64,000 nt of DNA, taken from contig JAWMAR010000647.1 in NCBI GenBank assembly GCA_036785375.1, positions 372,001 to 436,000 on the forward strand. Reading direction: 5' to 3'. Within the stretch, counting starts at the first letter, position 1, and the number at the start of each line of letters is the position of its first letter. Below are positions 23,765-59,177 of the stretch, piece by piece. Below the pieces are notes generated by a model that saw nothing but the letters and a program-made list of their open reading frames with translations, was not told where the DNA came from and made no database searches. The DNA is from Leucoraja ocellata (taxonomy: Eukaryota). Position numbers and translations under genes: made by a program.

Positions 23765-24002
23765 TACTGAGAAGAATCGTGAAGGAGAAATGCTATTTGA
23801 GTGGGTAAATTACCACGGTAACTAAAGGTCAGGAACTAGAAATTAGCTTGATCCCCAACTGTCTACCCCACCAAGTGTCGGGAAATGGACAAATGCCAGA
23901 TTTGGAATTTAGAAACATAGAAACATAGAAAATAGGTGCAGGAGTTGGCCATTGGGCCCTTCGAGCCTGCACCGCCATTCAATATGATCATGGCTGGGGC
24001 TG

Positions 24003-24658
24003 GTGAGTACCCCGGTGGCTGTACACCTTGAAAATAAGTACTCATGTTTGAGTAAGGGTGGGGGAGACATCCAACCTGGGGGCAGCGACAGTGGCCGGGC
24101 CTCTGGCACAAAGACCGGTCCTGTTGCTCAGAAGGGTAAGGAAAAGAAGAGGAGGACAATTGTAATAGGGGACTCTATAGTCAGGGGGTCGGATAGGCGA
24201 TTCTGTGGACGCAGACAGGAGACCCGGATGGTAGTTTGCCTCCCTGGTGCCAGGGTCAGGGATGTGTCTGAACGTGTCCAAGAAATCCTGAAATGGGAGG
24301 GAGAGGAGCCTGAGGTTGTGGTGCATATAGGTACCAACGACACAGGTAAAAAAAGAGAAGAGGTCCTGAAAGAAGAATTTAGGGAGTTAGGTAGAGAGTT
24401 AAGGAGAAGGACTGCAAAGGTAACAATCTCAGGATTACTGCCTGTGCCACGCGACAGTGAGAGTAGGAATGGAGCGAGGTGGAGGATAAATGAGTGGATG
24501 AGGGACTGGTGCAGTGGGTATGGATTCCAGTTTCTGGATCATTGGGATCTCTTTTAGGGAAGGTGCGACCTGTACAGAAAGGAAGGGTTGCACTTGAACT
24601 CGAGGGGGACCAATATCCTGGCGGGGAGATTTGCAAGGGCTACTGGGGAGACTTTAAA
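24003..24658 (+). pseudogene. CR1 ORF1 esterase domain with a premature TAG at 24555
   Basis: GDS and GxND blocks; GLHLN continues in frame after the stop. Confidence 0.8.
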
Positions 24659-25143
24659 CTAGTATGGTTGGGGGGAGGGACTCAAATTGGGAAAGCTAGC
24701 AGTCAGTGTGTGAGGCAGGAGGCAGAGAAGGGTAGCACTCTGACCCAAAATGTAGGGGAGAGAGAAGAAAAAGAAAATAATCAGAGAATAAGAGAGGGTG
24801 GGTTTCTTAAATGTGTACATTTTAATGCTAGGAGCATTGTAAGAAAAGTGGATGAACTTACAGCCTGGATTGACACCTGGAAGTATTATGTTGTGGCGAT
24901 CAGTGAAACATGGTTGCAGGAGGGCTGTGATTGGAAACAAATATTCCAGGATTTTGTTGCTTCAGGTGTGATAGAATTGGTGGGGCAAGAGGTGGAGGTG
25001 TTGTATTGCTTATCAGGGAAGATATTACAGCAGTGCTTAGGCAGGATAGATTAGAGGGCTCGTCTAGGGAGGCTATTTGGGTGGAAGTGAAATGGGAAAG
25101 TGGTAGCAACACTTATAGGGGTGTATTATATGGGGAGTGAGAA

Positions 25144-26175
25144 TTGGAAGAGCAAATATGTAAGGAGATTACAGATATTAGTAGTAAGCACAAGGTAGTG
25201 ATTGTGGGAGATTTCAATTTTCCACACATAGACTGGGAAACACATTCTGTAAATGGGCTGGATGGGTTGGAGTTTGTAAAATGTGTGCAGGACAGTTTTT
25301 TGCAGCAATACATAGAAATACCTACTAGAGAAGGGGCGGTGCTGGACCTCCTGTTAGGAAATGAGACGGGTCAGGTGGCAGAGGTATGCGTTGGGGATCA
25401 GTTCGGGACCAGTGATCACAATACCATTAGTTTCAATACAATTATTGAGAGGGTCAGAACTAGACCTAGGGTTGAGATTTTTGATTGGAGAAAGGCTAAC
25501 TTTGAGGAGATGCGAAAGGATTTAAAAGGAGTAAATTGGGACAGTTTGTTTTATGGGAAAGATGTGGAAGGGAAATGGAGGACATTTAAAGGTGAAATTT
25601 TAAGAGTACAGAATCTATATGTCCCTGTTCGATTGAAAGGAAATAGTAAAAATTGGAAAGAGCCATGGTTTTCAAGGGAAATTGGACACTTGGTTCGGAA
25701 AAAGAGAGAGATCTACAATAATTATAGGCAGCATGGAGTAAATGAGGTGCTTGAGGAGTATAAAGAATGTAAAAAGAATCTTAGGAAAGAAATTAGAAAA
25801 GCTAAAAGAAGATATGAGGTTGCTTTGGCAAGTAAGGTGAAAGTAAATCCAAAGGGTTTCTACAGCTATATTAATAGCAAAAGGATAACGAGGGATAAAA
25901 TTGGTCCATTAGAGAGTCAGAGTGGACAGCTATCTGCAGAGCCAAAAGAGATGGGGGAGATATTGAACAATTTATTTTCTTCAGTATTCACCAAGGAGAA
26001 GGATATTGAATTATGTGAGGTAAGGGAAACAAGTAGAGTAGCTATGGAAACTATGAGATTCAAAGAAGAGGAAGTACTGACACTTTTGAGAAATATAAAA
26101 GTGGATAAGTCTCCAGGTCCGGACAGGATATTCCCTAGGACATTGAGGGAAGTTAGTGTAGAAATAGCAGGGGCA
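25144..26175 (+). pseudogene. CR1 ORF2 fragment (APE endonuclease C-part and linker)
   Basis: GDFN, SDH, PWFS, FSSVFT and KSPGPD motifs. Confidence 0.88.
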
Positions 26176-28206
26176 ATTTCCTCGCACACTCCAAAGACAT
26201 GCTGGCTTGTAGGTTAATTAGCTTCTGTTAATAACCCCTTGTGTGTAGGGTGCAAAACTGGATTAACATAGAACTAGTGTATGAGAAATCGAAGGTTGGC
26301 ATAGAGTGAAGGGCCTGTCTCTGAGTTGTATCTCTAAACTAAACTAAACTAGTAGATTCTCAACTTTCTTTCTAAGATACCTGCAGCACCTCATGATTTG
26401 CATTGGAATAACAATTAATACAGCAGAAAGCGTAGATGTGTATTGCAAAAGTAGAAATGAAATTGGAAGTGAGATTAGGAAAATAAAGAAAATAAATAAG
26501 CAATGCTGTTGTGTAATAGCAAAGAAAATCCAAAGATGTTTTAGAAGTAAAAAAAAAAGGGGTTACTAAGGAATGAGTAGGGCCTCTTGAGGACCCAGGA
26601 CATTCAAGGAACTGCAGATTTTGGTTTACAAAAAAGACACAAATTGCTGGAGTGACTCAGCAATTCAGGCAGCATCTCTGGAAAACTTGGATAGGTGACG
26701 TTTCAGGTCGGGACCCTTCTAAGACGCGTAAACCACCTGTTGAACCTGATGTGAAAGGTTCCTATTGCAAATCTTGCAGTTATCTTCACAAAAAGGGAAT
26801 AGTGCCAGTGCTGTCGTTAAAGGGGAAAGTGTGAAATGCTAGCCAGATTAGACATAGTAAAGGGAAAACATTGACGGGTTTATTTAGCATGTTTTACAAT
26901 GGATAAATTGCCAGGCCCAGATGAAATATTCCTGGTTGTTAAAACAAATGAGAAAAAAAATGGTGCTCCTATATTTTTACAATTTGCCTGGCAATTGGAG
27001 AGGTGCCAGCAAATTTGAGGTCTATTAATATTTTATTGATGTAAAAGAAAAGAGGAAAAGATGAATTGGTAGGGACCGTATAAACCTTCTTCTAGAAAGG
27101 CACAGATTAATCAGCGACTAGTTAATACATGATGAGTCTTGAAGCACATGGCCAGGATGTAGTGGGATAACCCTGTTTTGTTGTATGTTGCTTCTGTTGC
27201 TCAGGGTGGATGTTGTCAGATACGACGGCACCTTTCTTCACAGTTATTCCAAGTTCTTTGCAATTGGATTGGATTGGTCCCTGGTCATAAAGTCATGGGC
27301 TGGATCGCACAGAAAAAGCTTCATCAGCCCACCATGTTCATGTCTTTTACCCATCCCATTAGCCTGCACTAGCTCAGTCTCTTCTGTGCCTTGCCTATTC
27401 AAGTGCTTGGCCAAATGCCTCTTAAATGTAAAATTATATATTTGATTCCATCATCTGGCAATGAGTTTTACAGTAGATATCAAACACACAAATCTTGCCC
27501 CTTATGTTTACATCCAAGGCGTCAATGTGCAAGAATCACAAGGGTCCTGGCATCATCCCTGTGATACAACGTTGGTCACAGATAGCTGTGGTAAAGATAT
27601 GTTCGGCAGTGAGACTACATATTGTGATCGAATACAATGTTGTTGTTACTGCTATTGTGTCAATGTCCAGTACATAGTAACAATAGCAAAAGTGTATTTC
27701 ATTAAACTATATTTTCTGTCAGGCTGGTGTATTTTTACCAGCTTTAGGTTTTTACAAATTAGCCTTATTTAGGTCCTAGATTTAATCCCCATTATACCAT
27801 GGAAGATGTCAACTATAATGAAGGCTGGACCTTGCGTTCACTTCTACCAATGCTGCCATGGGCAGGTGCATATACACAGGTAGCTCGGCAAGGACGATAT
27901 TGATTTCGTCGTGACTGTGTGCGGACCCAGATCCTCCTGAGCAATCTTAACAGTTTGGGCAATAGTTGTGCCACTCAGCAATCACTGTTATGGGCAATGA
28001 AATCTCCCACCTTTTGTACAATCTGCTTCTAAATATGTTCAGCAAGGGAAAATACTGATACGTCAGCTGTAAGTAGGTAATAGTGATAACAGCAGGAGTT
28101 CTTTGTGTTCAAGAAGGAGCTGCAGATGCTGGAAGATCGAAGGTACACAAAATTGCTGGAGAAACTCAGCGGGTGCAGCAGCATCTATGAAGCGAAGAAA
28201 ATAGGC

Positions 28207-28234
28207 GACGTTTCGGGCCGAAACCCTTCTTCAG
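28207..28234 (-). ncRNA. Predicted minimal type I hammerhead core (unit 1)
   Basis: CUGAAGA, stem II GGG/CCC, GAAA, palindromic ACGU stem III, GUC triplet. Stem I is only about 2 bp. Confidence 0.55.
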
Positions 28235-28302
28235 ACTGATCCACAAAATTGCTGGAGAAACTCAGCGGGTGCAGCAGCATCTATGGAGCGAAGAAAATAG
28301 GC

Positions 28303-28330
28303 GACGTTTCGGGCCGAAACCCTTCTTCAG
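28303..28330 (-). ncRNA. Predicted minimal type I hammerhead core (unit 2)
   Basis: Identical core 96 nt from unit 1. Confidence 0.55.
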
Positions 28331-29207
28331 ACTGATCGAAGTTCTTTGTTTTTGTTTGAAAGGAGTTCTTTGTTTTTGTTTGACCTAATGCCTTGAGACT
28401 TTGAAGTCTGAAGCAAACTGAGAACTCACGTTGCTACAATCTTACAACTATTTTTTACCACCTCTGGTGGGCCTGTTCCTCTCATGGGGCAGGATGATAA
28501 TCACGGATAGAGATAAATGAGTCTCAGATGTTAACTGAAAGATAAAATCAACCAGTTGTGGGTGAATACACTATTCTGTCACAAACAGTTAGTGAAGAAA
28601 ACATTGTAGAATTGACTGGGATAAACTATTGTAACTGGCGACAACTATGTTAATACTTGACAAATGCAGTTTAGTTTATTATCACATGTACTGTGGTACG
28701 GTGAAAAGTTTTTGTTATGTGCTATCCAGGCAGCAGAAAGATAATACATGATTACAATCGAACCATTTACAGTGTAAAGATACATAAGGGAATAACGTTT
28801 GGTGCTGGGTAAAGCCAGCAAAGTCCGATCAAGGATAGTCTGAGGGTCACCAAAGATAGTAGTTTAGCACTGGTAGGATGATTCAGTTGCAAGTTACAAA
28901 AAATGATTGCTTTTCTCTTAATGCTTTTTGCTGCATTTTCTGAGCTGATTTGCATGTACGTTATGTTTTCCAGCTTATGTACTTGTGCTAGGAATATCTG
29001 GTTCACTAATGAACAATATATCCCTTTTAACAGTGAACAGATAAATAGAGCGGTGACTTGTTTTACATCCTGACATCTTTGATAATTTTGAGTTGATCAG
29101 TAAAAATTATTATCAAACATTGCAATAACTGAATGTTATGTAAGAATTTTAAAGCAGATTTTGACTATAATAAATAATAACGGATGTTTTTTTGCTCTTC
29201 CCAAAAG

Positions 29208-29345
29208 GTGACACTGAATTTAAGACCCATTTTCTCCATTGACATCCATCAAAAGCCTTTGGTATTTGTGCTGAATTCCCCAAGACCTGTGGTTTGGATT
29301 ATAAAGGCAAAGCAATTGGCACCAGGAGTACAACGTTTGTTCCAT
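29208..29345 (+). CDS. TGFBR3: TGF-beta receptor type 3 (betaglycan) internal exon, 138 nt, phase 0/0
   Basis: Acceptor ttgctcttcccaaaAG, donor GTAAGT. Translates VTLNLRPIFSIDIHQKPLVFVLNSPRPVVWIIKAKQLAPGVQRLFH, matching betaglycan VTLHLNPISSVHIHHKSVVFLLNSPHPLVWHLK...GVSRLF (recalled). Could be a paralogue. Confidence 0.9.
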
Positions 29346-32445: not shown

Positions 32446-35305
32446 ACCATATAACCATATAACAATTACAGCACGGAAACAGGCCATCTCGACCCTTCTA
32501 GTCCGTGCCGAACACGTATTCTCCCCTAGTCCCATATACCTGCACTCAGACCATAACCCTCCATTCCTTTCCCGTCCATATAACTATCCAATTTATTTTT
32601 AAATGATAAAAACGAACCTGCCTCCACCACCGTCACTGGAAGCTCATACCACTCTCTGAGTAAAGAAGTTCCCCCTCATGTTACCCCTAAACTTCTGTCC
32701 CCTTAATTCTCATGTCATGTCCTCTTGTTTGAATCTTCCCTACTCTCAATGGGAAAAGCTTATCCACATCAACTCTGTCTATCCCTCTCATCATTTTAAA
32801 GACCTCTATCAAGTCCCCCCTTAACCTTCTGCGCTCCAAAGAATAAAGCCCTAACTTGTTCAACCTTTCTCTGTAACTTAGTTGCTGAAACCCAGGCAAC
32901 ATTCTAGTAAATCTCCTCTGTACTCTCTCTATTTTGTTGACATCCTTCCTATAATTAGGCAACCAAAATTGTACACCATACTCCAGAATTGGCCTCACCA
33001 ATGCCTTGTACAATTTTAACATTACATCCCAACTTCAATACTCAATGCTCTGATTTATAAAGGCCAGCGCACCAAAAGCTTTCTTTACCACCCTATCTAC
33101 ATGAGATTCCACTTTCAGGGAACTGTGCACAGTTATTCCCAGATCCCTCTGTTCACCTACATTCTTCAATTCCCTACCATTTACCATGTACGTCCTATTT
33201 TGATTTGTCCTGCCAAGATGTAGCACCTCACACTTATCAGCATTAAACTCCACCTGCCATCTTTCAGCCCACTCTTCCAACTGGCATAAATCTCTCTGTA
33301 GACTTTGAAAATCTACTTCATTATCCACAACCCCACCTATCTTAGTATCATCTGCATACTTACTAATCCAATTTACCACACCATCATCCAGATCATTGAT
33401 GTACATGACAAACAACAGTGGACCCAACACAGATCCCTGTGGCACCCCACTAGTCACTGGCCTCCAACCTGACAAACAACCATTCACCATTACTCTCTGG
33501 CATCTCCCATTCAGCCACTGTTGAATCCATCTTGCTACTCCACCATTAATACCCAACCATTGAACCTTCTTAACCAACCTTCCATGAGGAACCTTGTCAA
33601 AGGCCTTACTGAAGTCCATATATACAACATTCACTGCTTTACCCTCATCAATTTCCCGAGTAACCTCTTCAAAAAATTCAAGAAGATTAGTCAAACATGA
33701 CCTTCCAGGCACAAATCCATGTTGACTGTTCCTAATCAGACCCTGTTTATCCAGATGCTTATATATATGATCTCTAAGTAGCCTTTCCATTAATTTTCCC
33801 ACCACTGACGTCAAACTAACAGGTCTATAATTGCTAGGTTTACTCTTAGACCCCTTTTTAAACAACATGCGCAGTACGCCATTCCTCCGGTACTATTCCC
33901 GTTTCTAATGACATTTGAAATATTTCTGTCATAGCCCCTGCTATTTCTACACTAACTTCCCTCAATGTCCTAGGGAATATCCTGTCCGGACCTGGAGACT
34001 TATCCACTTTTATATTTCTCAAAAGTGTCAGTACTTCCTCTTCTTTGAATCTCATAGTTTCCATAGCTACTCTACTTGTTTCCCTTACCTCACATAATTC
34101 AATATCCTTCTCCTTGGTGAATACCGAAGAAAAGAAATTGTTCAATATCTCCCCCATCTCTTTTGGCTCTGCAGATAGCTGTCCACTCTGACTCTCTAAT
34201 GGACCAATTTTATCCCTCGTTATCCTTTTGCTATTAATATAGCTGTAGAAACCCTTTGGATTTACTTTCACCTTACTTGCCAAAGCAACCTCATATCTTC
34301 TTTTAGCTTTTCTAATTTCTTTCTTAAGATTCTTTTTACATTCTTTATACTCCTCAAGCACCTCATTTACTCCATGCTGCCTATAATTATTGTAGATCTC
34401 CCTCTTTTTCTGAACCGTGTCCAATTTCCCTTGAAAACCATGGCTCTTTCCAATTTCTATTATTTCCTTTCAACCGAACAGGGACATAAAGATTCTGTAC
34501 TCCTTTAAATTTCACCTTTAAATGTACTCCATTTCTCTTCCACATCTTTCCCATAAAACAAACTGTCCCAATTTACTCCTTTTAAATCCTTTCGCATCTC
34601 CTCAAAGTTAGCCTTTCTCCAATCAAAAATCTCAACCCTAGGTCCAGTTCTGACCCTCTCCATAATTATATCGAAACTAATGGTATTGTGATCACTGGTC
34701 CCGAACTGTTCCCCAACGCATACCTCTACCACCTGACCCGTCTCATTTCCTAACAGGAGGTCCAGCACCGCCCCTTCTCCAGTAGGTACTTCTATGTATT
34801 GTTGCAAAAAACTATCCTGCACACATTTTACAAACTCCAACCCATCCAGCCCATTTACAGAATGTGTTTCCCAGTCTATGTGTGGAAAATTGAAATCTCC
34901 CACAATCACTACCTTGTGCTTACTACTAATATCTGCAATCTCCTTACATATTTGCTCTTCCAATTCTCGCTCCCCATTTGGCGGTCTATAATACACCTCT
35001 ATAAGTGTTGCTACCCCTTTCTCATTTCTCAGTTCCACCCAAATAGCCTCCCTAGACGAGCCCTCTAATCTATCCTGCCAAAGCACTGCTGTAATATCTT
35101 CCCTGATAAGCAATGCAACACCTCCACCTCTTGCCCCACCAATTCTATCACAACTGAAGCAACGAAATCCGGGAATATTTAGTTTCCAATCACAGCCCTC
35201 CTGTAACCATGTTTCACTGATCGCCACAACATCATACTTCCAGGTGTCAATCCAGGCTCTAAGTTCATCCACCTTTCTTACAATGCTCCTAGCATTAAAA
35301 TATAC
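32446..35305 (-). mobile_element. Young CR1 LINE, nearly complete but frameshifted ORF2 (endonuclease and RT) plus 3' UTR, nested in an older CR1 tail
   Basis: ORFs 34505-35365, 33858-34424, 33035-33868 (YRPVSL, QHGF, DFSKAFD, GVPQGSVLGP, YADD) and 32687-33022; ataaccat tail. Confidence 0.95.
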
Positions 35306-36519
35306 ACCATCTTCTTCATGAAAAAGCAGCCCCGTTGGATTCCTTTTAAATCTTTCCCCAATCATTCAGGTCTCAAAATGTAAGACCACTCAGTCAAGAG
35401 TCAAGAGCTGATTGAATCATATTTTTGCAGCCATGCACTTTTCTGTGCTGCTTCTGTACCCTTCATTGTATAATACATTGTTTTCAGCTTCTGCTTTTTG
35501 TCTGCAATACTTCAAAAATATTATCTATAATCATGGGTGATTTCTAACTTGACACCATCACCTACTTTCTACTGTTTTACTGTTTGTTTTCTGGAAGTGC
35601 AATCAGTTGTTGTGGTTTTATATTATACATAACAAATTGACGCTGTGATGAGCTGATACACCTTGCAGTTAAATGTTATTGAGGCTGCGTTGCTCAGCTT
35701 TCGGCATTATCTTGACGATGATTTTTATCAATTTGCCTGCTCCCACTCGGGCTGAACTTGCCTTGCTTATAATGTGTACTTAACACTGTCAAGGTTAATG
35801 CATGAAGAATAACCATTTGGATTGGCACCATGAAACTGTCAAAGAAGAACATCAATGGAAAGGACAGAAAATATTAAGCACATTTTAAAAAATCTGTTTG
35901 ATGTGACAATTTGAGAGACGGATTATAGAAGTATTTCCTTTTGAAAAATTGTGAATTAACATATCAACAGAGGTTATTACTTACTCTTTGATTCTCCCCT
36001 TTTGATTGAAATTTGCACTACTAGGTTAGGAACCCAAGCATATTGTGATTGATGACATTTAACACAAAATGAATCCAGAAGTATCTTAATTCACATACTG
36101 ATGCCATTGCAGCAATGTCCTTAATAATTGGTACACACATTGGACAACAGACACAATATGAAAACTTAGCAATATACATTTTAGTACAATTTCAAGTTGG
36201 AAATGAAATTGAATTAATATTAAGGATCAGTGATTTGTTTTTGCAACAACTTTCCAATGTAATACTTGCATTTTAAAAAGAAATATCCGCAGTTTTGAAA
36301 ATAAAATCATTCTCTGGGGCCAAGATCAAGAGCAACATTTATTGTTGATTCTTAATTGGACTTGAAGAGGTGACGCTTTGCTTCAGTTCAACTAGCGTAG
36401 GTAATAATCAGTGCGGTGAGTCTGTGTCAATTGAAGAACAATGACTTTCTGCTCAAGCGAGGACAGTGCATGACAAGTATACCATGCCAACTATTTGCCT
36501 AGCAAACCGCTTCCCACCC

Positions 36520-36732
36520 CTCACTTATGCCGACCTATTAGCTGCCACGCTTTCTCCTGCCTCTCCCCTTTCCAGCTTTCTTCTTTACCCTCTACAATCA
36601 GTCTGAAGAAGGGTCTCGACCTGAAACAATACCAATCCGTGTTCTCCATAGATGCTACCTGACCTGCTGAGTTACTCCAGCACTTTGCATCCTTTTGTGT
36701 ATTAACCAGCACCTGCAGTTCTTTGTTTCTAC
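36520..36732 (+). mobile_element. Longer, older Penelope-LTR-like copy with a degenerate hammerhead core
   Basis: caatcagtCTGAAGAagggtctcgacctGAAAc...gatgctacctgacctgctgagttactccagc. Further degenerate copies at about 5322, 7190, 16700, 26605, 38180, 39697, 43790, 47985, 50060 and 58980. Confidence 0.6.
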
Positions 36733-39089
36733 CTTTATTACAGGTAATGATGGCCGAGGGTTTGGGGGATACTGTCAGAGAAGCATTGCCAAGTTGGTGC
36801 AGTGCATCTCATAGTGTACACTGTAGCCATGTTTCTCTGCCGATGGGGGAAATTAATTTTCAAGATTATAAAATTGCCCGTCGAGTGAGATGCCTTGTTC
36901 TGAGTGTTGAGTTTCTTGTGTCTTGTGGATCTGCTCCCATCCAAGCGGGTGGACATCTTTAAGATGCCGTTCCCTGGATAGTGTTGAGTTTCTGGATCCA
37001 TGTTGGAACTCCTCCCATCCAGGAAAGTAGACATCCTTGAGACGCTTTGCAGATGGTGGAAAGGCTTTCCAGAGACAGGACATGACTAACCCACGACAGA
37101 ATACCAAAACCTGGCATCTGCTACAATAAGTAGCTGGTTGACTTTCCATTTGTAATGGGGGAGAAGTATGAGCAATAATAATACAAATAGTTATATGTGT
37201 AATGGATGATTATACGTTCTTTGGAATGGTCAGTGCCTGGGACTTGCATGGTGTGAACATAACTTGCTGATTTTCAGCCAGAGCTTGGTTGTTGTCCATG
37301 TCTTGCTGAGTTCTGCATGGGCTTTTCATTATCCACAGCTTTAAAATGTTCCCCTGGTCTTTTTAGCTTGCCAAAATCTAGTTGTTTTTTTCGTTATAAG
37401 ACTGCATAATGTCGACCTTCATTAAAGTGTGTCTAAAACCATTAAACCTGTGAGCACTGATTCTTCACACCAGACTTTTGGCTGCATGACAAAACCTGCT
37501 GAAACACCAGTGTTGTTTGTTTTCTTCAGCAAAGCATTTATCAGTAAATCAAAGGTGAGCTTTCCAGTTGTATTTTAAAGAGATAAAAAATGTAATTCCA
37601 CCAGAAAACATCATACAATAGAAACAATTATTTTATAAGTTACCTGTATAAAGATTTAATGATTCTTTTTAAACCCCAGTTTTATCTGAGAAGTACTACT
37701 TTGCTAAACTCATAAACTTGTGTTCCAGACTGGTTGGAAGGAGCTGGAACCATTTCAGCGTCGTCTTAGAATGAATAACAGATTTGTCTAACTGAGTCAA
37801 AATTTATATTAAATGTATTATATTTCAGACACGCAATCTAGTTATGTAAAATGCCTACACAAACAAGTGTCTGCTTTGCACATGCTGTTTATGAGCTAAA
37901 TAAATGATACAACTTAAAACAAATTAATCTTTATACGCCGTACTCTTTAAACAGCAAACTGTTGTGCACGGAACACAGAAAATAATAAGATAAAATTAAT
38001 ATTCTTCCATGAGGAAGAAATAATATTCCTTGCAAATGAAGAAAATAATGTTCTTTTATAAAATAATGAAAATAGTCATTGTGACAATGACTTAAATGAG
38101 TATTTACAGATTTTCCCCAATGCCTTGTGAATTGCGCAGCAGGTTTTCAGCTGTAAAGAACGACAAAACACTCATTTTAAGAGATGCTGCCTGGCCCGCA
38201 GCATCCAGCATTTTGTGCCTACCTTCCACCTATCACTTGCCAGGCTTTGTCCTACCCTTATCTCTCCTTTCCATCGTCAGCCCCCTGCTCCTGAAGAAAA
38301 GTATCACCCATTTCCCTCTAATTATACTGCCTGACCTGCTGAGTTACTCCAGCATATTTTTTGGACAATTGGCTTATTTACCTCTTTCTGTGTCATAGAG
38401 ATTCAATATCAGGCTATATGCTTATTTTATCTGTGCGCCCATTGCACGATTTTGACACATCTGCCCATAATTTATGTTACTAATTTTGTTTGCAGCTGTA
38501 CTTCTCACTGAACAATGAATTGTTATCCTATTCAGTCATCTTGTTATAATGTGGTTAAAACCGATGATCATGCCATATCTGTAATTTAAAATTGAGCATT
38601 GTTTACCGACATATTATGCCAATAATGTTAGCATTAGCAAAACAGTTCAAAAGGTTTACTCTGATGGCAGATATAATGGCAATCCATTTGAGCAGAAAAG
38701 TAATCTCGTTAATATACACAAAGTAACAAATATCTGTTTTTTATATAATGCATCAGAAGGGCCAAGCATAAAAAAGATTCAGCATCTATGACAATGCTGC
38801 CAAAAGGTTATTTCATACATTAAATCAGAAATCTTGACTTTGCAAAATCTAGCAATGTTGCCAAGAAATTGTTTTCTTCCAGAAAGATAAAAAAATCATT
38901 AACATAGTAACAGTAGTGGTATTGTTTAAGCTATGAAAAAGAAATAAACTATTAGTCACATATCTGAGACTTTAATAGGCCTGGAGAGAGAAATATTTCC
39001 ATGACCAATGTCAATGACTTGCATTTGTGTATTATCTGCAATGTATGAATGATCAATAAGCAACACTACAGCAATGGCCAAGGTAGATG

Positions 39090-39690: not shown

Positions 39691-39867
39691 TCATGTGGGA
39701 AGGAACTGCAGATGCTGTTTTTAAGATGGACACAAAATGCTGGAGAGGCTCGGCGGGGCAGGCAGCATCTCTGGAGAGCTGCCACCAATTTCTTTTCGCT
39801 CCAGATATGCTGCCTGTCCCACTGACTTACTCCAGCATTTTGTTTCTATCTTTTATACCTATTATAA

Positions 39868-41512
39868 ACAATAGACAGTAGGTGCAGCAGTAGGAACATT
39901 CAGCCCTTCGAGCCAGCCCCACTATCACTGTGATCATCCGCAATCAGTATCCCGTTTCTGCCTTCCCATATCACTTGACTCTACTATCTTTAAGAGTTCT
40001 ATCCAACTCGCTCTTGAAAGCATCCAGAGAATCAGCCCCCACTACCTTCTGAGGCAGAGAATTCCACAGATTCACAACTCTCTGGTTGAAAATGTCTTTC
40101 CTCATATCCGTTCTAAATTGCCTACCCCTTACTCTTAAACTGTAACCCCTAGTTCTACACTCCCCCAACATCGGGAAGATGTTTCCTGCCTCTAGCGTAT
40201 CCAATCCCTTAATAATCTTATGTTTCAATAAGATGCCCTCTCATCCTTCTAAATTCCAGTGTGTACAAGCCCAGTCGTTCCTTTCTTTCAACATATGACA
40301 GTCCAGCCATCCTGGGAATAAACCTCGTGAACCTACACTGCACTCCCTCAATAGCAAGAATGTCCTTCCTCAAATTTGGAGACCAAAACTACACACAATA
40401 CTCCAGGTGTGGTCTCACCAGGGCCTTATACAACTGCAGAAGGACCTCTTTGCTCCTATGCTCAACTCCTCTTGTTATGAAGGCCAACATGCCATTAGCT
40501 TTCTTCACTGCCTGCTGTACCTGCTTGCTTACTTTCAGTCGCTGATGTACAAGGGCACCCAGATCTCGTTGCACTTCCCCTTTTCCTAACTTGGCACCAT
40601 TCAGATAATAATCTGCCTTCCTGTTCTTGCCACCAAAGTGGATAACCTCACATTTATCCTTATTAAAATGCATCTCCCATGCATCTGCCCACTCACCCAA
40701 CCTGTCCAAGGCACCCTGCATCCTCATAGCATCTTCCTCCCAGTTTACGCTGCCACCCAGCTTTGTGTCATCTGCAAATTTGCTAATGTTACTTTTAATC
40801 TCTTCATCTAAACTTAATCATGAATGTATTTTGTAAATAGCTGCAGTCCCAGCACCAAGCCTTGCGGTAACCCACTAGTTACTGCTTGCTAGTTACTGAA
40901 AGGAACCCGTTAATCCCTAATCTTTGTTTCCTGGCTGCCAACCAATTTTCTATCCATGTCAATACCCGCCCCCTATACCATGTGTTCTAATTTTGCCCAC
41001 TAATCTCCTATGTGTAAACTTATCAAAGTATTTCTGAAAGTCTAGGTACACTACGTTCACTGGCTCTCCCTTGTCTATTTTCCTAGTTACATCCCCAGAG
41101 AATTCCAGAAGATTAGTCAAACATGATTTCCCCTTCGCAAATCCAAGATGACTCGGACCGATCCTGTTACTGGTATCCAAATGTCCCGCTATTTCATCTT
41201 TTATAATTGACTCCAGCATCTTCCCCACCACTGATTTCAGGCTAACTGGTCTATAATTCCCTGTTTTCTCTATCCCTCCTTTCTTAAAGAGTAGAATACT
41301 ATTAGCTTCCCTCCAATCCACAGGAACTGATCCTGAATCTATAGAACATTGGAAAATGATCACCAATGCATCCACGATTTCTAGAGCCACCTTCTTAAGT
41401 ACCCTGGGATGCAGACCACCAGGCCGTGGGGATGTATCAACCTTTAGTCCCATCAGTCTACCCAACACCATTTCCTGCCTAATGTGAATTTCCTTCAGTT
41501 CCTCCGTCACCT
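39868..41512 (-). mobile_element. Older CR1 LINE, RT region to 3' end
   Basis: NYRPVSL, KGKSCLTNLLEF, VYLDFQK.FDK, LYKALVRPHLEYC. Confidence 0.9.
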
Positions 41513-41714
41513 TAAACTTAAATTAAACAGGGCCAGGGCCTTCAGTGAAGGATAAGGCCCTGGGGAGTGTTGTAGACTGAAAGGATCGAGGAAAACAAGT
41601 ACATAGTTCCCTGAAAGTTGTGTAGCTGGTTGATAGAACGGTCAAGTGGACTTTCAGTACTTGGGCTTTCATCAGTCAGGGAATTCTATACTTGGGCCTT
41701 CATCAGTCTGGGAA

Positions 41715-42510: not shown

Positions 42511-45385
42511 TTTTGTCCAGCCAAAACTGGCATCAAGAAGAGTGGGCTTAATGTCAATCAAGGGGAAAACTCTGCTGCCTGAATCCTATTTCATACAAAG
42601 GAAGATGGTTATGGTTTTTGGAGGCCGATTATTTTGGCCCCAAGACATAATTGATGGGGGGTCTGCGGCCCATCTCATTTCTTGCTTCACCGTTGACCAT
42701 CCTTTCATCATTATGTCAGATGTGCCTGTAAGCAAATTGGGGTGCTTTACAATCAACATGTTCTTTATTATGTTTTTTTCTAAGTTGAAGCTGAAACTAA
42801 TTGTCCTAGATTTATCATGTTTTCATAAGTTTGAAGTTTAAGTTTGTAGGCAGTTTAGTGTTGTTAATCACAGGAAATTTGTTTATACATAGAAACCCTG
42901 TAATTACATTGCACCATATTTCCATCGTGTGTCATTATGGAAAAATGTGGTGCTGTAATTCAAAATTAGTTATCACGCTGTGTTTAAAATTGTTTTGTTT
43001 TTCCACATTGAAGTGTAAACCTCCAATTTCAGGGGCAGCATGAACTGTGAATTACCTGCTCACCCTCCAAGGCAATTTGTTCCCCATTTTCTTGGAAGAC
43101 ACATACATGCACCAGTTCTACTGAATTTCTAATTTACATTTATAATCTCCAAGCAGGCCAATTAAACATTCTGTATATTAAAACTGTCCTGTTTCTAAAA
43201 AACAAGTTACAATATTGCTTTATTATCATATCAACATTATCAATATTAAATAACATGAGGATGCAAATAGGATTGCCTTAGCAATCAAATGTGCATGATA
43301 CAATTAGTACTTCCCTAAAATAATAATTTAATCATTCCAGTTTAAATGCCAAAGTAATGCTTTAATCCTGAAACGTGGAATTTGGCCTTCATTCTTGTGC
43401 TTATGATTCTCAAATGAACAATCTATTTTCAAATTTATCACATGGCTGTGAACAAAAAATTATTTCAGAACTTAGAACAGCAAAGCACAGAATGGCTCTT
43501 TAGGCCCACAATATTTATGCCGAACATGATGCCAAGTTAAAATGGGTGCAAATGTAGTAAAATATTGTGCTGAGAAATGTATTTTTCTGTCCCTGTGGAG
43601 TTTGCGTTTCCTTCAGGTGCTCCGGTTTCCTTCCGCATCCTAAAGACTTGTAGGTTAATTGTCCTTGGTATGTAGAAGTGGATGAGAAAGAGGGGTAACA
43701 GAGATCGATGCCCAGTGTGGACTTAGTGAGTCCAATGTGATCGATGCCCAGTGTGGGATTTGCTGAGTTGAATTTCCTGTACGAAGTAAGGCAAGTTCCC
43801 AACCTGAAACTTTGTCTGTTCGTACCCTCCACAGATGCTGTCTGACCTTCTGAGGTCCTCCAGCACTTTATGTTTTGCTCAGTTCAGTGTGTTCAGGTAC
43901 AAGTCAGTCATGGTCTGCCTGGGTGATGAAATGCATTTGGGAGTCTGAATCAAATGGCCTCTGAATTGCCTGTGTCGCAAGTTCACACAAAAGCAGGTGG
44001 TTGTCTGTTACTTCAGCTCTCCCCGTACTCCAGTGCTGCATCTCCCTCGCATCTGTAACTGATTCCCAATACTGTTCCTTTGTGCATTCTGACTTATTTC
44101 ACTCCACTCTACGTTGACGTTTAGTCACTGGAGTTTTTTTTAAGCCACAGTCTCCCACACAAAGCTTTTGGTCACTGCGACTTAATGTTCTGCATTCCTG
44201 GACACTCCCAAATGCTAAAGGCACTAAATAAATACATATTGTTGTTGTTGATACCAAGACGGGCCTTAATTATGGCTTTTTTACTTGGTGCTAAACTAAA
44301 CCATGCATTTGTTACTTTGTTTTATTGCACTAACAAAAAAAAATTCCAAAGGATTATTTCTAAAGGTCGAACAGCTGGCTGTCTCTATAACTTTTTGGCT
44401 CTAATCAGTGGAGCGTCAGACTCCAACCCATCTGCATTAAATTTGTGCTGTAGGATGTAGGTATCAGAAAACTAGAAGGGAATACATACAGTACCGTGAA
44501 AGTAGCCTACTTATGACACTGGAGGTCGGAAAGAATATGTTGCATTATGGTTGGAGCATTGGTGGTTAAGATAAAGTAATAAGTATATGAAATAAATCCT
44601 GTTGGAAGTTATTCTCCTCCTACATTGTCGCATGTTTTTGTGCAGCAAAATTAATTCCACATAAACTGTCTAGACCAGAAAGTAACTGGGCACATATTAT
44701 TTATCACTCAAGCCCTAAATGTACTGGACCGGCTACAATACAGCCAGTTGTGGGCCAAGTTTTAATCGATGTTATGTTTAACAATAGTAAACATTGTAGT
44801 AGTATTATCATTCATTACTGCATTACTGCAGAACTGTTGCCTATAGAACTCTTTAAACATTTCAAAGACTATGTTTCAACAAGTTCAGCTTTTCAAGTTA
44901 TGGAGGCAATAGCCATGGCTTCTTAGTAGATCGAATTTGAGCCTGGATTTTGTAGGCCACGGTTTGTTGCACATGCACTAATTCGGAATCCCCCTGGGCC
45001 CGTGCATTTGAATTTACAGCAATCTTGGTACGCTGCTGTCTAAATCTCCAACATTAATTAAAATCTAGAGGATTACTGATACAATAATTTACTGATACGT
45101 TAGGTTTGAATGCCAGGAAGATTAATTGGCACTATTTAGGATTTATTGGACTGTAGATGTGTTTACTTACTGTGCTTTTAACCCAGAATTGTACAATTCG
45201 TACACATTTATCTCTGCCTTAGCACCATGAATTTGGACTCATTTTTTCAGAGGCACTTCCTCTGACATAAGAACTAATGAGTCCCGGCAATATAAAATGT
45301 CACCCAGGAGTGACAAATATTAAGCAATATTTTTTTACGTACATGAATGGGTTTAACAAAATGCTTTTATTCTTCTTAATTTTAG

Positions 45386-49481: not shown

Positions 49482-50597
49482 GTAAGTATTTGAGTATTTA
49501 CCTCTGTTAACTAATTGTTATTAACTAAAAATCAAAATACTGTAACTAAGTTTGTTGTGGTATGAGAGTGTGAAACACTTTTGATGACTTAGCAAGTGGA
49601 TGGCTTTTAAAAAAGTATTGTGAAGAATTGCCCTTCCAAAAGCTACGAAAAGCTTAACCTAGTGATATATATATTGCTTTCGTTCATGTATGAGTTATTG
49701 AAAGAATGAATATACTGTTTTTGTTGGGGATTACAATTTATCAGAAAAGGAAGTTGATCCTTTGCAAAAGTTTTGACTCCACATCTTTGCATAGTAAAAC
49801 AGGTTAGGGGCACTTAAGAGTGTAATGTGAGACTCAGTACTGAGAATGCATTTTTCTGCTGGTTCCCTCAGGCTCTTAGCTGTTGAGTTCTGTGCTTGCC
49901 CAAAATCTTCAAAAACTAACTGCAGTTTCAAGTGCCATACTCTCAGGAGCAGAAAATATTATTTCTATTCTGACTTCAACACAGTTCTCAATATTTGTTG
50001 CTGCATATTTCCATGCTTTTCTTCTTCTACAAGCCAGGAGCAACTTAATGGATACACAAACAATTGCAGATGCTGGAATCTTGAGCCAAACACAAAGTGG
50101 TAGAAGAACTCAGCAGGTCAGGCAGCATCTCAATTCAATTCAATTCAACTTTAATGTCATTGCACAAATACGAGTATGGGTACAACAAAATGCAGTTTAG
50201 CGTCAGTGGAGGGAATGGACAGGTGACGTCTGAAGAAGGGTACCAACCCAAAATGCATAATTCTCTTCATGGATGCTGCCTGACCCACTGAGTTTCTCCA
50301 GCACTTAGTGTTTTACTCAGATCCTATTTAAGATTGGGAACATTTCAGCACGCTCTTTCAGTTTCTTCAAAAAAGTTATTTTCTCGATTTATTAAACACT
50401 CCAGTTAGGCACTGAATCTGCCCATCCTTTGCTTACATCACACACTCTGTTACACTAGCCATTTGTGGCTGCATAGCTCCTAACAACCTCTTGGTCTGAA
50501 AAGGGCATGTGAGTGCCAATTAGGCCACAGGTGGTGAAAACTAAGAGCCTGCCTATGGAACGTCCTGAAGGCCTTCCTGCAGTTCAAGGTTTTCTCT

Positions 50598-51681: not shown

Positions 51682-52897
51682 CAGGTGCACAACCTTTTAT
51701 CCGAAAGCCTTGGGACCAGACACTTGTCGGATTTCGGACTTTTTCGGATTTCAGAATGGAAGATTTTTAGCGTAGATTAGGTAGGTAGCGCGGGCGGTTT
51801 GAAAAGTCTGGAGCAGCTGCCTCCTACTCGGAGACCGGGAGAATCATTGCATAAATGTTAGTCAGTTAGTTTGGAGGGATTTTATGTGGTGGTGGTGGGG
51901 TGGGTGGGTGAAGGGGGAAACTTTAATTCTTAGTCCCCTACCTACCTGGTCGGCGACTCCCAACCTCGCGGAGCTGGGGGCTCCGTCCGGCCGCGGGCGG
52001 CGCCGGTTGTAGCTCCGACCCCGGCAACTCTACCCCTGGCTGCGAGGCGCTCCAAATCCAGCGCGGCCCGCGGCCGGACGTCCCAGCTCCGCGAATGTCG
52101 GGAGTCGGCGACGTCGCAGCGCTGGGATACCAGCGGGGAGCGAGCAATGCCTTACCGGGTCGCCGTGCGGCAAGCTCCGGAGCGCTGTGGCCGCCTTCTT
52201 CCAACATTCGCGGAGCGTCGCTGGATTTGGAGCCGCGGAGCTGGGGGCTCCGTCCGGCCGCGGGCGGCGCCGGTTGGAGCTCCGACCCCGGCAACTTTAC
52301 CCCTGGCTGCGCGGCTCCAAATCCAGCGACGCTCCGCGATGTTGTGTGTCGGCGGCCACGGCGCTCCGGAGCTTGCCGCACGGCGACCCGGTAAGGCATT
52401 GCGCTGCGACGCCGCCGACTTCCGACATTTGCGGAGCTGGGGCGTCCGGCCGCGGGCCGCGCTGGATTTGGAGCGCCTCGCAGCCAGGGGTAGAGTTGCC
52501 GGGGTCGGAGCTACAACCTGCGCCGCCCGCGGCCCCACCGGCCACAGCGCTGCGGAGCTTACTGCACGGCGACCCGGTAAGGCATTGACCGCTCCCCGCC
52601 TCTCCGACCAGGTAGGGGACTAAGAATTAAAGTTTACCCCTTCACCCCCCTTCACATAAAAGCCCTCCAAACTAACTGACTAACATTTAAGCAATGATTT
52701 ACAGATGTTTAAGCGTCTCCCGGTCTCCAGGGAGGAGGCAGCCGCTACAGTAGTACAGACCTGGGTTGACCGTGGGTCGTTTTGGGTCAGGTTTGGCGCC
52801 AAACGCGAGCTTTGGTGCGCAGACGACATCTGGAAAAAATGGCCGGTTTTCGGAGCTTTTCGGTTTCTGGAACACCGGATAAAAGGTTGTGCACCTG
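51682..52897. mobile_element. Non-autonomous Tc1/mariner (Tigger/pogo-like) DNA transposon with a GC-rich palindromic interior
   Basis: TIR CAGGTGCACAACCTTTTATCCG, TA on both sides; no transposase ORF. Confidence 0.88.
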
Positions 52898-56499: not shown

Positions 56500-57987
56500 C
56501 CAACCATATAACAACCATATAACAATTACAGCACGGAAACAGGCCATCTCGGCCCTACAAGTCCATGCCGAACAAATTTTTTTCCCCTTAGTCCCACCTG
56601 CCTGCACTCGTACCATAATCCTCCATTCCCTTCTCATCCATATGCCTATCCAATTTATTTTTAAATGATACCAATGAACCTGCCTCCACCACTTCCACTG
56701 GGAGCTCATTCCACACCGCCACCACTCTCTGCGTAAAGAAGTTCCCCCTCATATTACCCCTAAACTTCTGTCCCTTAATTCTGAAGTCATGTCCTCTTGT
56801 TTGAATCTTCCCTATTCTCAAAGGGAAAAGCTTGTCCACATCAACTCTGTCTATCCCTCTCATCATTTTAAAAACCTCTATCAGGTCCCCCCTTAACCTT
56901 CTGCGCTCCAGAGAATAAAGACCTAACTTATTCAACCTATCTCTGTAACTTAGTTGTTGAAACCCAGGCAACATTCTAGTAAATCTCGTCTGTACTCTCT
57001 CTATTTTGTTGACATCCTTCCTATAATTTGGCGACCAAAATTGTACCCCATACTCCAGATTTGGTCTCACCAATGCCTTGTACAATTTTAACATTACATC
57101 CCAGCTTCTATACTCAATGCTCTGATTTATAAAGGCTAGCATACCAAAAGCTTTCTTTACCACCCTATCTACATGAGATTCCACCTTCAAGGAACTATGC
57201 ACGGTTATACCCAGATCCCTCTGTTCAACTGTATTCTTCAATTCCCTACCATTTACCATGTACGTCCTATTTTGATTTGTCCTGCCAAGGTGTAGCACCT
57301 CACATTTATCAGCATTAAACTCCATCTGCCATCTTTCAGCCCATTTTTCCAAATGGCCTAAATCACTCTGTAGACTTTGGAAATCCTCTTCATTATCCAC
57401 AACACCCCCTATCTTGGTATCATCTGCATACTTACTAATCCAATTTACCACACCTTCATCCAGATCATTGATGTACATGACAAACAACAAAGGACCCAAC
57501 ACAGATCCCTGAGGCACCCCATTAGTCACCTGCCTCCAACCCGATAAACAGCCATCCACCATTACCCTCTGGCTACTCCCATTCAGCCACTGTTGAATCC
57601 ATCTTGCTATTCCTGCATTTATACCCAACAGTTGAACCTTCTTAACCAACCTTCCATGAGGAACCTTGTCAAAGGCCTTACTAAAGTCCATATAGACAAC
57701 ATCCACTGCTTTACCCTCGTCAATTTCCCTAGTAACCTCTTCAAAAAATTCAAGAAGATTAGTCAAACATGACCTTCCAGGCACAAATCCATGTTGACTG
57801 TTCCTAATCAGACCCTGTTTATCTAGATGATTATATATATTGTCTCTAAGTATCTTTTCCATTAATTTGCCCACCACTGAAGTCAAACTAACAGGTCTAT
57901 AATTGCTAGGTTTACTCTTAGAACCCTTTTTAAACAATGGAACAACATGCGCAGTACGCCAATCCTCGGGGACTATTCCCATTTCTA
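56500..57987 (-). mobile_element. Young CR1 LINE, 5'-truncated, with an uninterrupted RT-to-C-terminus ORF
   Basis: 464-aa ORF, 3' UTR and aaccatat tail. Confidence 0.95.
56588..57982 (-). CDS. CR1 ORF2 reverse transcriptase domain (5'-truncated, open)
   Basis: SNYRPVSLTS, QHGF, YMDFSKAFDKV, GVPQGSVLGPLLF, KYADDTKI. Confidence 0.85.
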   Translation of the reverse strand: MGIVPEDWRTAHVVPLFKKGSKSKPSNYRPVSLTSVVGKLMEKILRDNIYNHLDKQGLIRNSQHGFVPGRSCLTNLLEFFEEVTREIDEGKAVDVVYMDFSKAFDKVPHGRLVKKVQLLGINAGIARWIQQWLNGSSQRVMVDGCLSGWRQVTNGVPQGSVLGPLLFVMYINDLDEGVVNWISKYADDTKIGGVVDNEEDFQSLQSDLGHLEKWAERWQMEFNADKCEVLHLGRTNQNRTYMVNGRELKNTVEQRDLGITVHSSLKVESHVDRVVKKAFGMLAFINQSIEYRSWDVMLKLYKALVRPNLEYGVQFWSPNYRKDVNKIERVQTRFTRMLPGFQQLSYRDRLNKLGLYSLERRRLRGDLIEVFKMMRGIDRVDVDKLFPLRIGKIQTRGHDFRIKGQKFRGNMRGNFFTQRVVAVWNELPVEVVEAGSLVSFKNKLDRHMDEKGMEDYGTSAGRWD

Positions 57988-59177
57988 ATAAGTCTACTGG
58001 TTTCAGTCACTTTCAAAGGAGAGAAATCATGAATTCAATTAAAATGTATTTGCGTATGCAATGGCGGTGTCATAACTATGAATTCATAACTGCGAGGTAA
58101 TTTGGCCATATATCTTCTTCTTTGCCTGTGGTGACTGAGCTAGAAGGTTTCCCATGCCATTACCTTCCATATTCCACTGTTATAACCTCTTTTTCTCTAA
58201 GTTTTAATTTTTTTAATACAATATCCCCTGTTGTAGGAGCCTTTTGGCTGCTTGTGGGGCACCTTTACTCGCTAGGAGATATCATTCTACCTTTCCGTCA
58301 GCTGCCACAAGGCATCATTTGCCTGTTCCTACCTGATCCTGCATTGAACATCAATTACAATCCTTGTGCATTTTATTTAAATTTTCACAATCTTTGCAGC
58401 AGAGACACACAGCAACATTTTCAAAAGAGAACCAAAGAGATTTCCAGTGTCGGGAAATGTAGGGCAATGTAAAACTAGATCTGATGTAACATGGTAATAA
58501 TATGTTTGTAAATTTTTTTTTAGACTTTGAAGGATGTAAAGGTGTTTTCTTAACTGCATTCCAGATGTAGAACAAACTTCAATTTCACAAGGTCAATTGC
58601 GTCAGCATGCATAATTTCTGATATGTTATGGTGAAAATTGCCCTTGCTTACTTTCCTTTTGAAACAAATATCCAACCAGTACCAGAGGTTTTTCATGGAT
58701 GCAAGTCATGCATGATGTTACTGCAGTCTCTGTCCTTTTGCAACTTAGTAAATAGTTTTATGCCACTCTTTTGGTGATCCTGTATTCCACACATCATTCG
58801 CCAGTTAGAACGGTTTATGGGTCTGTCTCTTTTCTCTCTCCCATTAAAATGTCTGTACTGCAGGTTATGCCTGTTAGACTTAGAAACCAGAACGCTGAAT
58901 TCAGTTTTGATTCTGTTAGGAAGCAACTGGAAGAATAAAGTCTACACATTCTGAAGCCTATGATTTCACTTGATGAGGAAAGACGCAAAATGCTGGAGTA
59001 AGTCAATGTGTCAGGCAGCATCCCTAGAGAGCATGGATAGGGTACATTTTGGGTCGGGACGTTTCTCAAAACTGAATTACTCCAACATTTTGTGTCTTTG
59101 CTTGGGAAACCAGCATCTGCAGTCCCTTGTTTCTACACCCTAATTTTACTTGATGTCCATTCTTTTATGAAAACACA

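Follow-up and report, generated by a model that had tools for sequence, protein, structure and literature searches.

The locus and its host gene

The insertion considered here lies about 0.8 kb upstream of an internal exon of TGFBR3 (betaglycan), which occupies 29208-29345 on the plus strand of the 64-kb window, that is, of the whole stretch of Leucoraja ocellata DNA that was analysed. The translation of this exon matches TGFBR3 entries of the PDB with E values of 5e-18 to 5e-12. In a protein search, all 10 named sequences among the 11 matches were TGFBR3 of cartilaginous fishes, the best being those of two batoids, Pristis pectinata (91%) and Narcine bancroftii (87%). With these two proteins as queries, tblastn places more exons near 45380, 45886, 49323 and 60954, all on the plus strand, and finds none in the window for residues 1-92; a motif scan for TGFBR3 located no further exons. 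Since the exon at 29208 is internal, the element should sit in the intron that precedes it. The TGFBR3 exons are on the plus strand and the hammerheads on the minus strand, so that the hammerhead strand is antisense to TGFBR3, as the initial annotation of this DNA had placed it. Because the copy is antisense, no hammerhead is present in the TGFBR3 pre-mRNA; a scan of 28094-28383 for CUGANGA boxes found none on the plus strand.

The insertion consists of two 96-nt units in direct tandem, read on the minus strand, which Tandem Repeats Finder reports as a repeat of period 96 in 2.0 copies over 28146-28337. Both are fragments of a pseudo-LTR (pLTR) with the same 5' end. The downstream unit, 28146-28241, runs on into a 40-nt tail (28106-28145, minus strand) that forms the 3' end of the insertion, belongs to this unit only and supplies the 3' arm of a hairpin common to the family; the upstream unit, 28242-28337, is tail-less. 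The two units are identical at 95 of 96 positions, with a single mismatch. The whole is enclosed by a 13-bp target-site duplication, whose left copy (28094-28106, plus strand) shares its final T with the end of the element and matches the right copy (28361-28373) exactly. At the 5' junction of the element, a 23-nt templated filler (28338-28360, plus strand) copies adjacent target DNA, with 21 of its 23 nt identical to 28362-28384 at the right. The repetition of the target flank had already been noticed: the 10-mer at 28097 is found again at 28340 and within 28361-28373. The span that was then assigned to the feature, 28094-28383, also covers the tail, which was not named. The target flanks are 59-62% AT, and the local background is no poorer in AT.

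The hammerhead motifs

Judged by the established hammerhead numbering and core consensus, each unit begins with a minimal type I hammerhead on the minus strand: hammerhead B in the downstream unit (28200-28241, with C3 at 28234 and C17 at 28207) and hammerhead A in the upstream one (28296-28337, with C3 at 28330 and C17 at 28303). In each unit 7 nt precede the CUGAAGA box, which is followed by a bulged A, by a 4-bp stem II (GGGU/GCCC) closed by a UUCG loop, and then by GAAA-CGU-C17. In hammerhead B, the 5' strand of stem I, the CUGAAGA box and the 3' strand of stem I occupy 28241-28235, 28234-28228 and 28206-28200, respectively. The core boxes (C3-U4-G5-A6-N7-G8-A9, G12-A13-A14-A15.1, U16.1 and H17) are perfect in both units, helix II has its G10.1-C11.1 pair, the extra base between 9 and 10.1 is present, and a palindromic ACGU (15.1-16.1) replaces helix III in a manner that permits dimers. 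A 28-nt core pattern matches 28207-28234 and 28303-28330 on the minus strand without mismatch and is found a third time in the 64-kb window, at 21829-21856, with one mismatch; 100 shuffles of the sequence lead one to expect 0.00 such matches by chance.

Two near-identical 96-nt units with hammerheads, of the minimal type I with ACGU standing in for stem III, are thus what the initial annotation had described, and period, identity and core pattern bear it out. Its estimate of about 2 bp for stem I holds for the pairs beside the core (U-G and G-C) and falls short beyond them, where three further pairs are possible past a 2x2 internal loop. With C17 at 28207 and 28303, cleavage would fall, as was then proposed, at 28207/28206 and 28303/28302, and the predicted cut-to-cut piece would be 96 nt long.

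Pairing was also counted across a 16-row alignment that includes both focal units and the flank columns of truncated copies. In this alignment 75.6% of helix I cells are paired, the fourth pair of stem II is U-A in 11 rows and U-G in 4, and the whole structure is 77.7% paired, a value reached by 17 of 500 shuffles; slid controls of the pair counts gave 18-47%. Rfam returned no hammerhead at its gathering threshold in the whole 64 kb, and the five sub-threshold matches at E<=10 are unrelated, none of them a hammerhead; the motif call therefore rests on the core consensus and not on a covariance model. A degenerate form of the core pattern had no match in prokaryotic genome contigs.

A dispersed family with two kinds of 3' end

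Iterated nhmmer searching of the 64-kb window (E<=0.01) places the tandem in a dense dispersed family, whose 23 matches had gone unreported in the initial annotation. These 23 arms lie at 15 loci: 7 single copies, 6 head-to-head inverted pairs and 2 direct pairs, the last being the focal locus and a decayed locus at 38136-38362. Arm ends were taken from nhmmer together with a tail-box test, pairwise end-mapping having overshot into the flanks for several arms. The 3' ends so defined are bimodal, with 13 arms ending at model positions 94-111, 10 at 124-135 and none between, a separation of about 30-40 nt. In the tail-box test the longer class (10 of the 23 arms) contains a second CAGCA-CUGCA box, which pairs with the upstream AGAUGCUG as an 8-bp helix; of 9 tailed arms, 8-9 retain any given pair of this helix, with no compensatory change. 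Exactly one arm is tailed at 7 of the 8 two-armed loci (P 0.03) and at all 6 inverted pairs (P 0.014), both values being conditional on independent arms; at the remaining two-armed locus, 38136-38362, both arms are tail-less.

The 5' ends have a different distribution. Of the 23 arms, a single one has its start close to the cleavage site, and 16 begin upstream of it, at model positions 1-11, a count that is limited by the edge of the model. The junction between the two focal units, 28242/28241, occurs at 1 of the 15 loci in the window. Target duplications accompany three of the eight loci examined, their length being 13 bp at the focal copy and 12 bp at each of two further young ones; the other five loci had none of at least 9 bp. 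A pyrimidine-rich upstream part of the repeat is preserved at 36520-36597 and 38225-38290 and is absent from the focal copy. From an ATG at 28184 a frame of 27 codons extends up to the end of the tail, with a spacing that varies among old copies; in rotifer Penelope-like elements, similarly, the pLTR plus tail contain the first 22 codons (PMC3846280).

Comparison of subfamilies indicates how the motif has fared over time. A young subfamily, represented by 2 copies, was set against the majority sequence of 10 old copies: of the positions scored, 0 of 14 in the core and 11 of 53 downstream have changed (Fisher P 0.059); the two changes that fall in stems are both A to G opposite U, so that pairing is retained. 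An unchanged core is what selection on the source element would predict, and the hammerhead motif looks to have been maintained in source elements. Among the 14 window copies taken together, core conservation is 0.79 and downstream conservation 0.80, an equality that is as expected for neutral decay; this comparison among dead copies is confounded by such decay and by 5' truncation. On the preferential conservation of the core boxes, which the initial annotation had named as a test, the two comparisons thus point in different directions at the scale of the window.

A probable Penelope-like insertion

The hallmarks of Penelope-like elements (PLEs) include partial tandems, inverted 5'-truncated copies, and a tail of 30-40 bp that is often present at a single end (PMC8557442, PMC3846280). 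The family described here has 5'-truncated members, six inverted and two direct two-armed loci among its 15, bimodal 3' ends with one tail (40 nt at the focal locus) at nearly every two-armed locus, a hammerhead within the pLTR, and a target duplication that, at 13 bp, lies within the variable range of about 8-13 bp described for PLEs in AT-rich DNA. The Penelope-like origin that had been suggested from the focal sequence is accordingly upheld by one-sided tails, inverted pairs, 5' truncation and the features of the minimal hammerhead itself. In metazoan PLEs such hammerheads are of type I, lack helix III, have a palindrome at 15.2-16.2 (ACGU, as here), an extra base between 9 and 10.1, G10.1-C11.1 and a short helix I, of 2-5 bp (PMC4209133); like the present family, they occur mostly in dispersed truncated copies, some of them in close opposite-strand pairs, and their design is dimer-dependent (PMC4209133, PMC6765202). 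The focal motifs differ in their helix II, which has 4 bp where the Schistosoma families have 7-8 bp, and in forming a direct tandem with a spacing of 96 nt, instead of the distance of about 3 kb seen for PLE minimal hammerheads (PMC4209133).

Partner proteins were sought in the window. Of its 44 ORFs of at least 120 aa, 16 were scanned with Pfam, and neither a PLE reverse transcriptase nor a GIY-YIG domain turned up in them; 7 of the 16 had a Pfam match, to domains of APE-type LINE pieces (RVT_1, Exo_endo_phos, GDSL esterase). Scanning the window with PLE motifs gave chance matches only, and a 40-aa query from the frame of ATG 28184 (27 element and 13 flank codons, a weak test) retained none of 8 candidates at E<=10. 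The autonomous GIY-YIG reverse transcriptase partner that the initial annotation had suggested looking for was thus absent from what was scanned of the window, so that the family is tied to an autonomous PLE, and to a clade, by architecture only.

A close parallel is the Poseidon element PAc of Anolis carolinensis, in which a hammerhead likewise lies about 100 nt upstream of two reverse transcription start sites, the tail (30-40 nt) is the stretch between these two internal sites, insertion takes place without need of hammerhead cleavage, and uncleaved RNA is the main template (PMC11167929). The comparison is one of architecture: the skate family has neither an ORF nor a protein partner in the window, its start sites are those suggested by genomic ends, and its clade may be Poseidon or Neptune.

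These observations are probably best explained by a young, 5'-truncated insertion of a PLE pseudo-LTR end in a miniature partial-tandem form, generated by a re-start of reverse transcription and most likely inert. The tandem most likely corresponds, in direct orientation, to the six inverted pairs, composed as they are of a tail-less and a tailed unit; the existence of the two classes, their pairing, the target duplication and the filler together make a single insertion from uncleaved RNA the most likely source. A PLE protein would nick the target and start reverse transcription at the site that marks the end of the tail. A first round of copying would cover 136 nt of uncleaved RNA and stop 7 nt before the hammerhead core, either because the RNA had its 5' end there or because copying broke off; a re-start at the second start site, at the tail boundary, would then copy 96 nt up to the identical point, and the 5' base common to both units would be the trace of this shared stop. 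The far side of the break would finally be joined through the 23-nt templated patch, leaving the 13-bp duplication behind. An 8-mer over the 5' junction (28334-28341) that is identical to 28135-28142 in the tail may be the record of another brief re-priming, or of a single substitution in the filler. The two hammerheads would be passengers in all of this, intact because the copy is young. Both units have private variants in common relative to the copies at 21764 and 15464, which implies one template or one source for both.

One source is also what would be expected if a single 136-nt PLE copy had been inserted and had later been duplicated by replication slippage or unequal exchange: the near-identity of the units, their common 5' base and their shared private variants would fit, and the filler, as a second local duplication, marks the site as duplication-prone. 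The breakpoints speak against such a history. The 96-nt duplication amounts to exactly 2.0 copies without flanking microhomology, one of its breakpoints is precisely the 5' junction of the insertion, and the other is the tail boundary, where tail-less copies end (+89 nt from C3, in the RNA sense, for the upstream unit, and +93 for its sister copy at 21764). The recurrence of the same tailed and tail-less asymmetry in every inverted pair also counts against it. Later duplication of a single copy is unlikely.

Cleavage and possible function

The initial annotation had proposed that the tandem supplies both partners of a hammerhead dimer in cis. Geometrically this is possible: the double-hammerhead fold is nested, has no pseudoknot, and can be enforced on the predicted structure. 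As an account of why there are two units it finds no support in the window, where the direct junction is confined to a single locus and where the inverted pairs, for which a cis dimer is impossible, show the same combination of a tailed and a tail-less arm.

That the double hammerhead nonetheless functions, an antisense transcript of the TGFBR3 intron being cut twice to give a linear or circular RNA of 96 nt or a terminated antisense RNA, is improbable. Both cores are perfect, both core boxes are intact in 4 of the 23 arms in the window and all 4 of these are antisense to TGFBR3, dimer-dependent cleavage of PLE minimal hammerheads has been documented (PMC4209133, PMC6765202), and strong in vitro cleavage was seen for one of nine Xenopus dimers (bioRxiv 10.64898/2026.07.22.740005). 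Against this, the other eight Xenopus dimers are reported in that preprint as showing no cleavage, Schistosoma minimal hammerheads are uncleaved as monomers and cleave weakly as dimers (PMC4209133), and the anole PLE ribozyme cuts only with the PLE protein, no RNA-seq reads being reported to end at its cut site (PMC11167929). The focal copy, moreover, has no upstream pLTR part. It is in this part of the repeat that the pLTR promoter is expected (PMC6765202), and the copy would consequently depend on read-through antisense transcription.

Folding says little in either direction. With ViennaRNA, the enforced double hammerhead comes to -36.4 kcal/mol and the minimum to -66.6 kcal/mol, a gap of about 30 kcal/mol; the preferred fold contains a 14-bp inter-unit helix formed through stem II and GAAAC (probability 0.95-0.99), and for two separate strands the gap is 18.3 kcal/mol. 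Gaps as large arose in 350 of 500 shuffled-stem controls, in a comparison that had no known-cleaving ribozyme as positive control. They are generic, whether through the weakness of the minimal architecture or through the energy model, and were dropped as evidence against activity. On balance the focal copy is most likely inert; detectable in vitro cleavage of the focal dimer would be possible, with failure the likelier result, and a biological role is in our judgement improbable. Slightly less probable than function as such is the more elaborate proposal that one PLE insertion made a cis-cleaving 96-nt pair from which antisense read-through would release a circularisable RNA, the birth of a tiny retrozyme that might also influence antisense transcription at TGFBR3.

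Assembly artefact and retrozymes

It is very unlikely that the tandem is an artefact of assembly in which two alleles, or overlapping contig ends, were placed one behind the other. The units do differ at one site, four N gaps of 132-214 nt in the window are typical of a short-read scaffold, and PLE tandems are known to trouble assemblies (PMC8557442); the nearest gap, for its part, is some 10 kb away, and the duplication ends at biologically meaningful boundaries inside a clean target duplication.

Least probable is that the 96-nt unit is a non-LTR retrozyme, replicating as a circular RNA of its own and integrated in the form of a rolling-circle multimer: it answers to the operational definition of a 2026 preprint (a tandem with a complete canonical or minimal hammerhead in two consecutive units), its size is in keeping with the 51-972 bp of the families given there, which are present in the one chondrichthyan species sampled, and its core fold of -5.1 kcal/mol falls barely beyond the cut-off of -5 (bioRxiv 10.64898/2026.07.22.740005), and yet the downstream unit runs into the family tail rather than into another unit, tailed copies elsewhere in the window do likewise so that no monomer recurs within it, and classical retrozymes have canonical hammerheads with loop 1-loop 2 contacts, repeats of 150-450 bp and RNAs of 170-400 nt (PMC7229834), against a minimal hammerhead in 96 bp here.

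The genomic unit had been called retrozyme-like in the initial annotation, and this is not supported by the mapping of its ends: neither is a cut site, one being the tail boundary and the other the point, 7 nt before C3, at which the insertion is truncated on its 5' side. Since the genomic unit differs from the cut-to-cut unit, since the junction is private to this locus among the 15 of the window and since the downstream unit continues into the tail, the tandem is, as far as its sequence can tell, neither a rolling-circle product nor a selected dimer. What it does have in common with non-LTR animal retrozymes is short non-coding tandem units with a type I hammerhead, a relation to the PLE pLTR and a large target duplication; it differs in consisting of two units only, in its asymmetric tail and in its minimal hammerheads (PMC7229834; bioRxiv 10.64898/2026.07.22.740005).

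Significance

The focal tandem is probably the ordinary footprint of a PLE-type insertion, from a minimal-hammerhead family of known type. By itself it matters little, in that other non-mammalian vertebrates carry thousands of such scraps per genome; minimal-hammerhead pLTR fragments number about 4,000 in the coelacanth and about 9,000 in Xenopus (PMC4209133). Nothing here shows that the tandem does anything for its host. The hosts of PLE minimal hammerheads named in the available parts of PMC4209133 and PMC6765202 are fish, coelacanth, Xenopus and reptiles, with no cartilaginous fish among them, and in that of PMC6155905 a shark appears only in connection with the name of the ribozyme. A search of the literature found no description of this chondrichthyan family, which the supplementary lists of the 2026 preprint may include.

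The locus does have a modest value. The window shows neatly how one insertion can use both PLE start sites, a pattern repeated at seven of its eight two-armed loci, and the tandem offers a natural test case, being a cis dimer that is young, compact and perfect in sequence. Were it to be cleaved efficiently and to yield a 96-nt circle, it would provide a concrete route from the end of a PLE to a retrozyme, a route that has been proposed, there by way of later local amplification (bioRxiv 10.64898/2026.07.22.740005).

Pairing of arms in the pLTR-like family

The arms of the dispersed family resembling Penelope-like element pLTRs fall into two 3' classes, tailed (with an additional 30-40 nt) and tail-less, and all six of its head-to-head inverted pairs in the window (5319-5454, 15464-15658, 16694-16905, 39698-39849, 50056-50318 and 58979-59130) join one arm of each class. 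The arm junction of the pair at 15464 lies within the self-complementary stem II/GAAAC region, generating a near-perfect 200-bp palindrome. Besides the tandem of 96-nt units at 28094-28373, there is a second, decayed direct pair at 38136-38362, in which two tail-less arms are separated by a pyrimidine-rich spacer of ~65 nt resembling the sequence upstream of the 36598 copy; the hammerhead of the second arm is partly deleted.

Both core boxes (CUGANGA and GAAA) are intact in 4 of the 23 arms, those at 28330, 28234, 21856 and 7269. All four are antisense to TGFBR3, a number too small for testing selection against sense intronic ribozymes. The 36603 copy lies on the sense strand relative to TGFBR3, and its palindromic ACGU is broken.

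Genomic setting

The TGFBR3 exon encoding residues 1-92 (of the Pristis and Narcine proteins) was not found in window positions 1-29200; it appears either that the intron harboring the tandem exceeds 29 kb or that the missing exon has diverged or lies within a gap. The four N gaps (2075-2214, 3140-3271, 3398-3544 and 18036-18249; 633 bases in all) point to a scaffolded short-read assembly.

Fragments of APE-type LINEs with RVT_1 and Exo_endo_phos domains, presumably CR1-like, lie at 23988-26217 (where the endonuclease is preceded by an ORF for a GDSL/SGNH esterase), 33035-35365, 40389-41522 and 56588-58006. Perfect pentanucleotide microsatellites (AATCT, TAAAC, AGTTT) at 11383-11416, 17372-17418 and 17794-17819 are likely LINE or SINE 3' tails. 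Two small families of 20-nt tandem units occupy two loci each (9458-9522, 11800-11839, 16379-16428 and 18948-19018). Two stretches are G+C-rich (52-53% in 2-kb windows): 10863-11104 carries periodic repeats of 19-21 and 127 nt, and in 51927-52623 both strands carry long open frames, of which the single one scanned against Pfam gave no match.

Ribozyme structure, 5' truncation and the tail

The youngest family copies are truncated 5' at 28337, 28241, 21858, 12693 and 15568-15584, in every case within ~20 nt of the hammerhead 5' edge or in stem II, although the edge of the model partly limits this mapping. Their clustering, subject to that same partial limit, suggests that the ribozyme structure is a drop-off point for reverse transcription. 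At the tandem, the tail end CCUUCUU (28111-28117, minus strand) is complementary to AAGAAGG of the core (28321-28327, minus strand), and the two pair with a probability of 0.92 in the predicted fold of the locus. Pairing of tail with core, as modeled, might be a means of holding tailed templates uncleaved.
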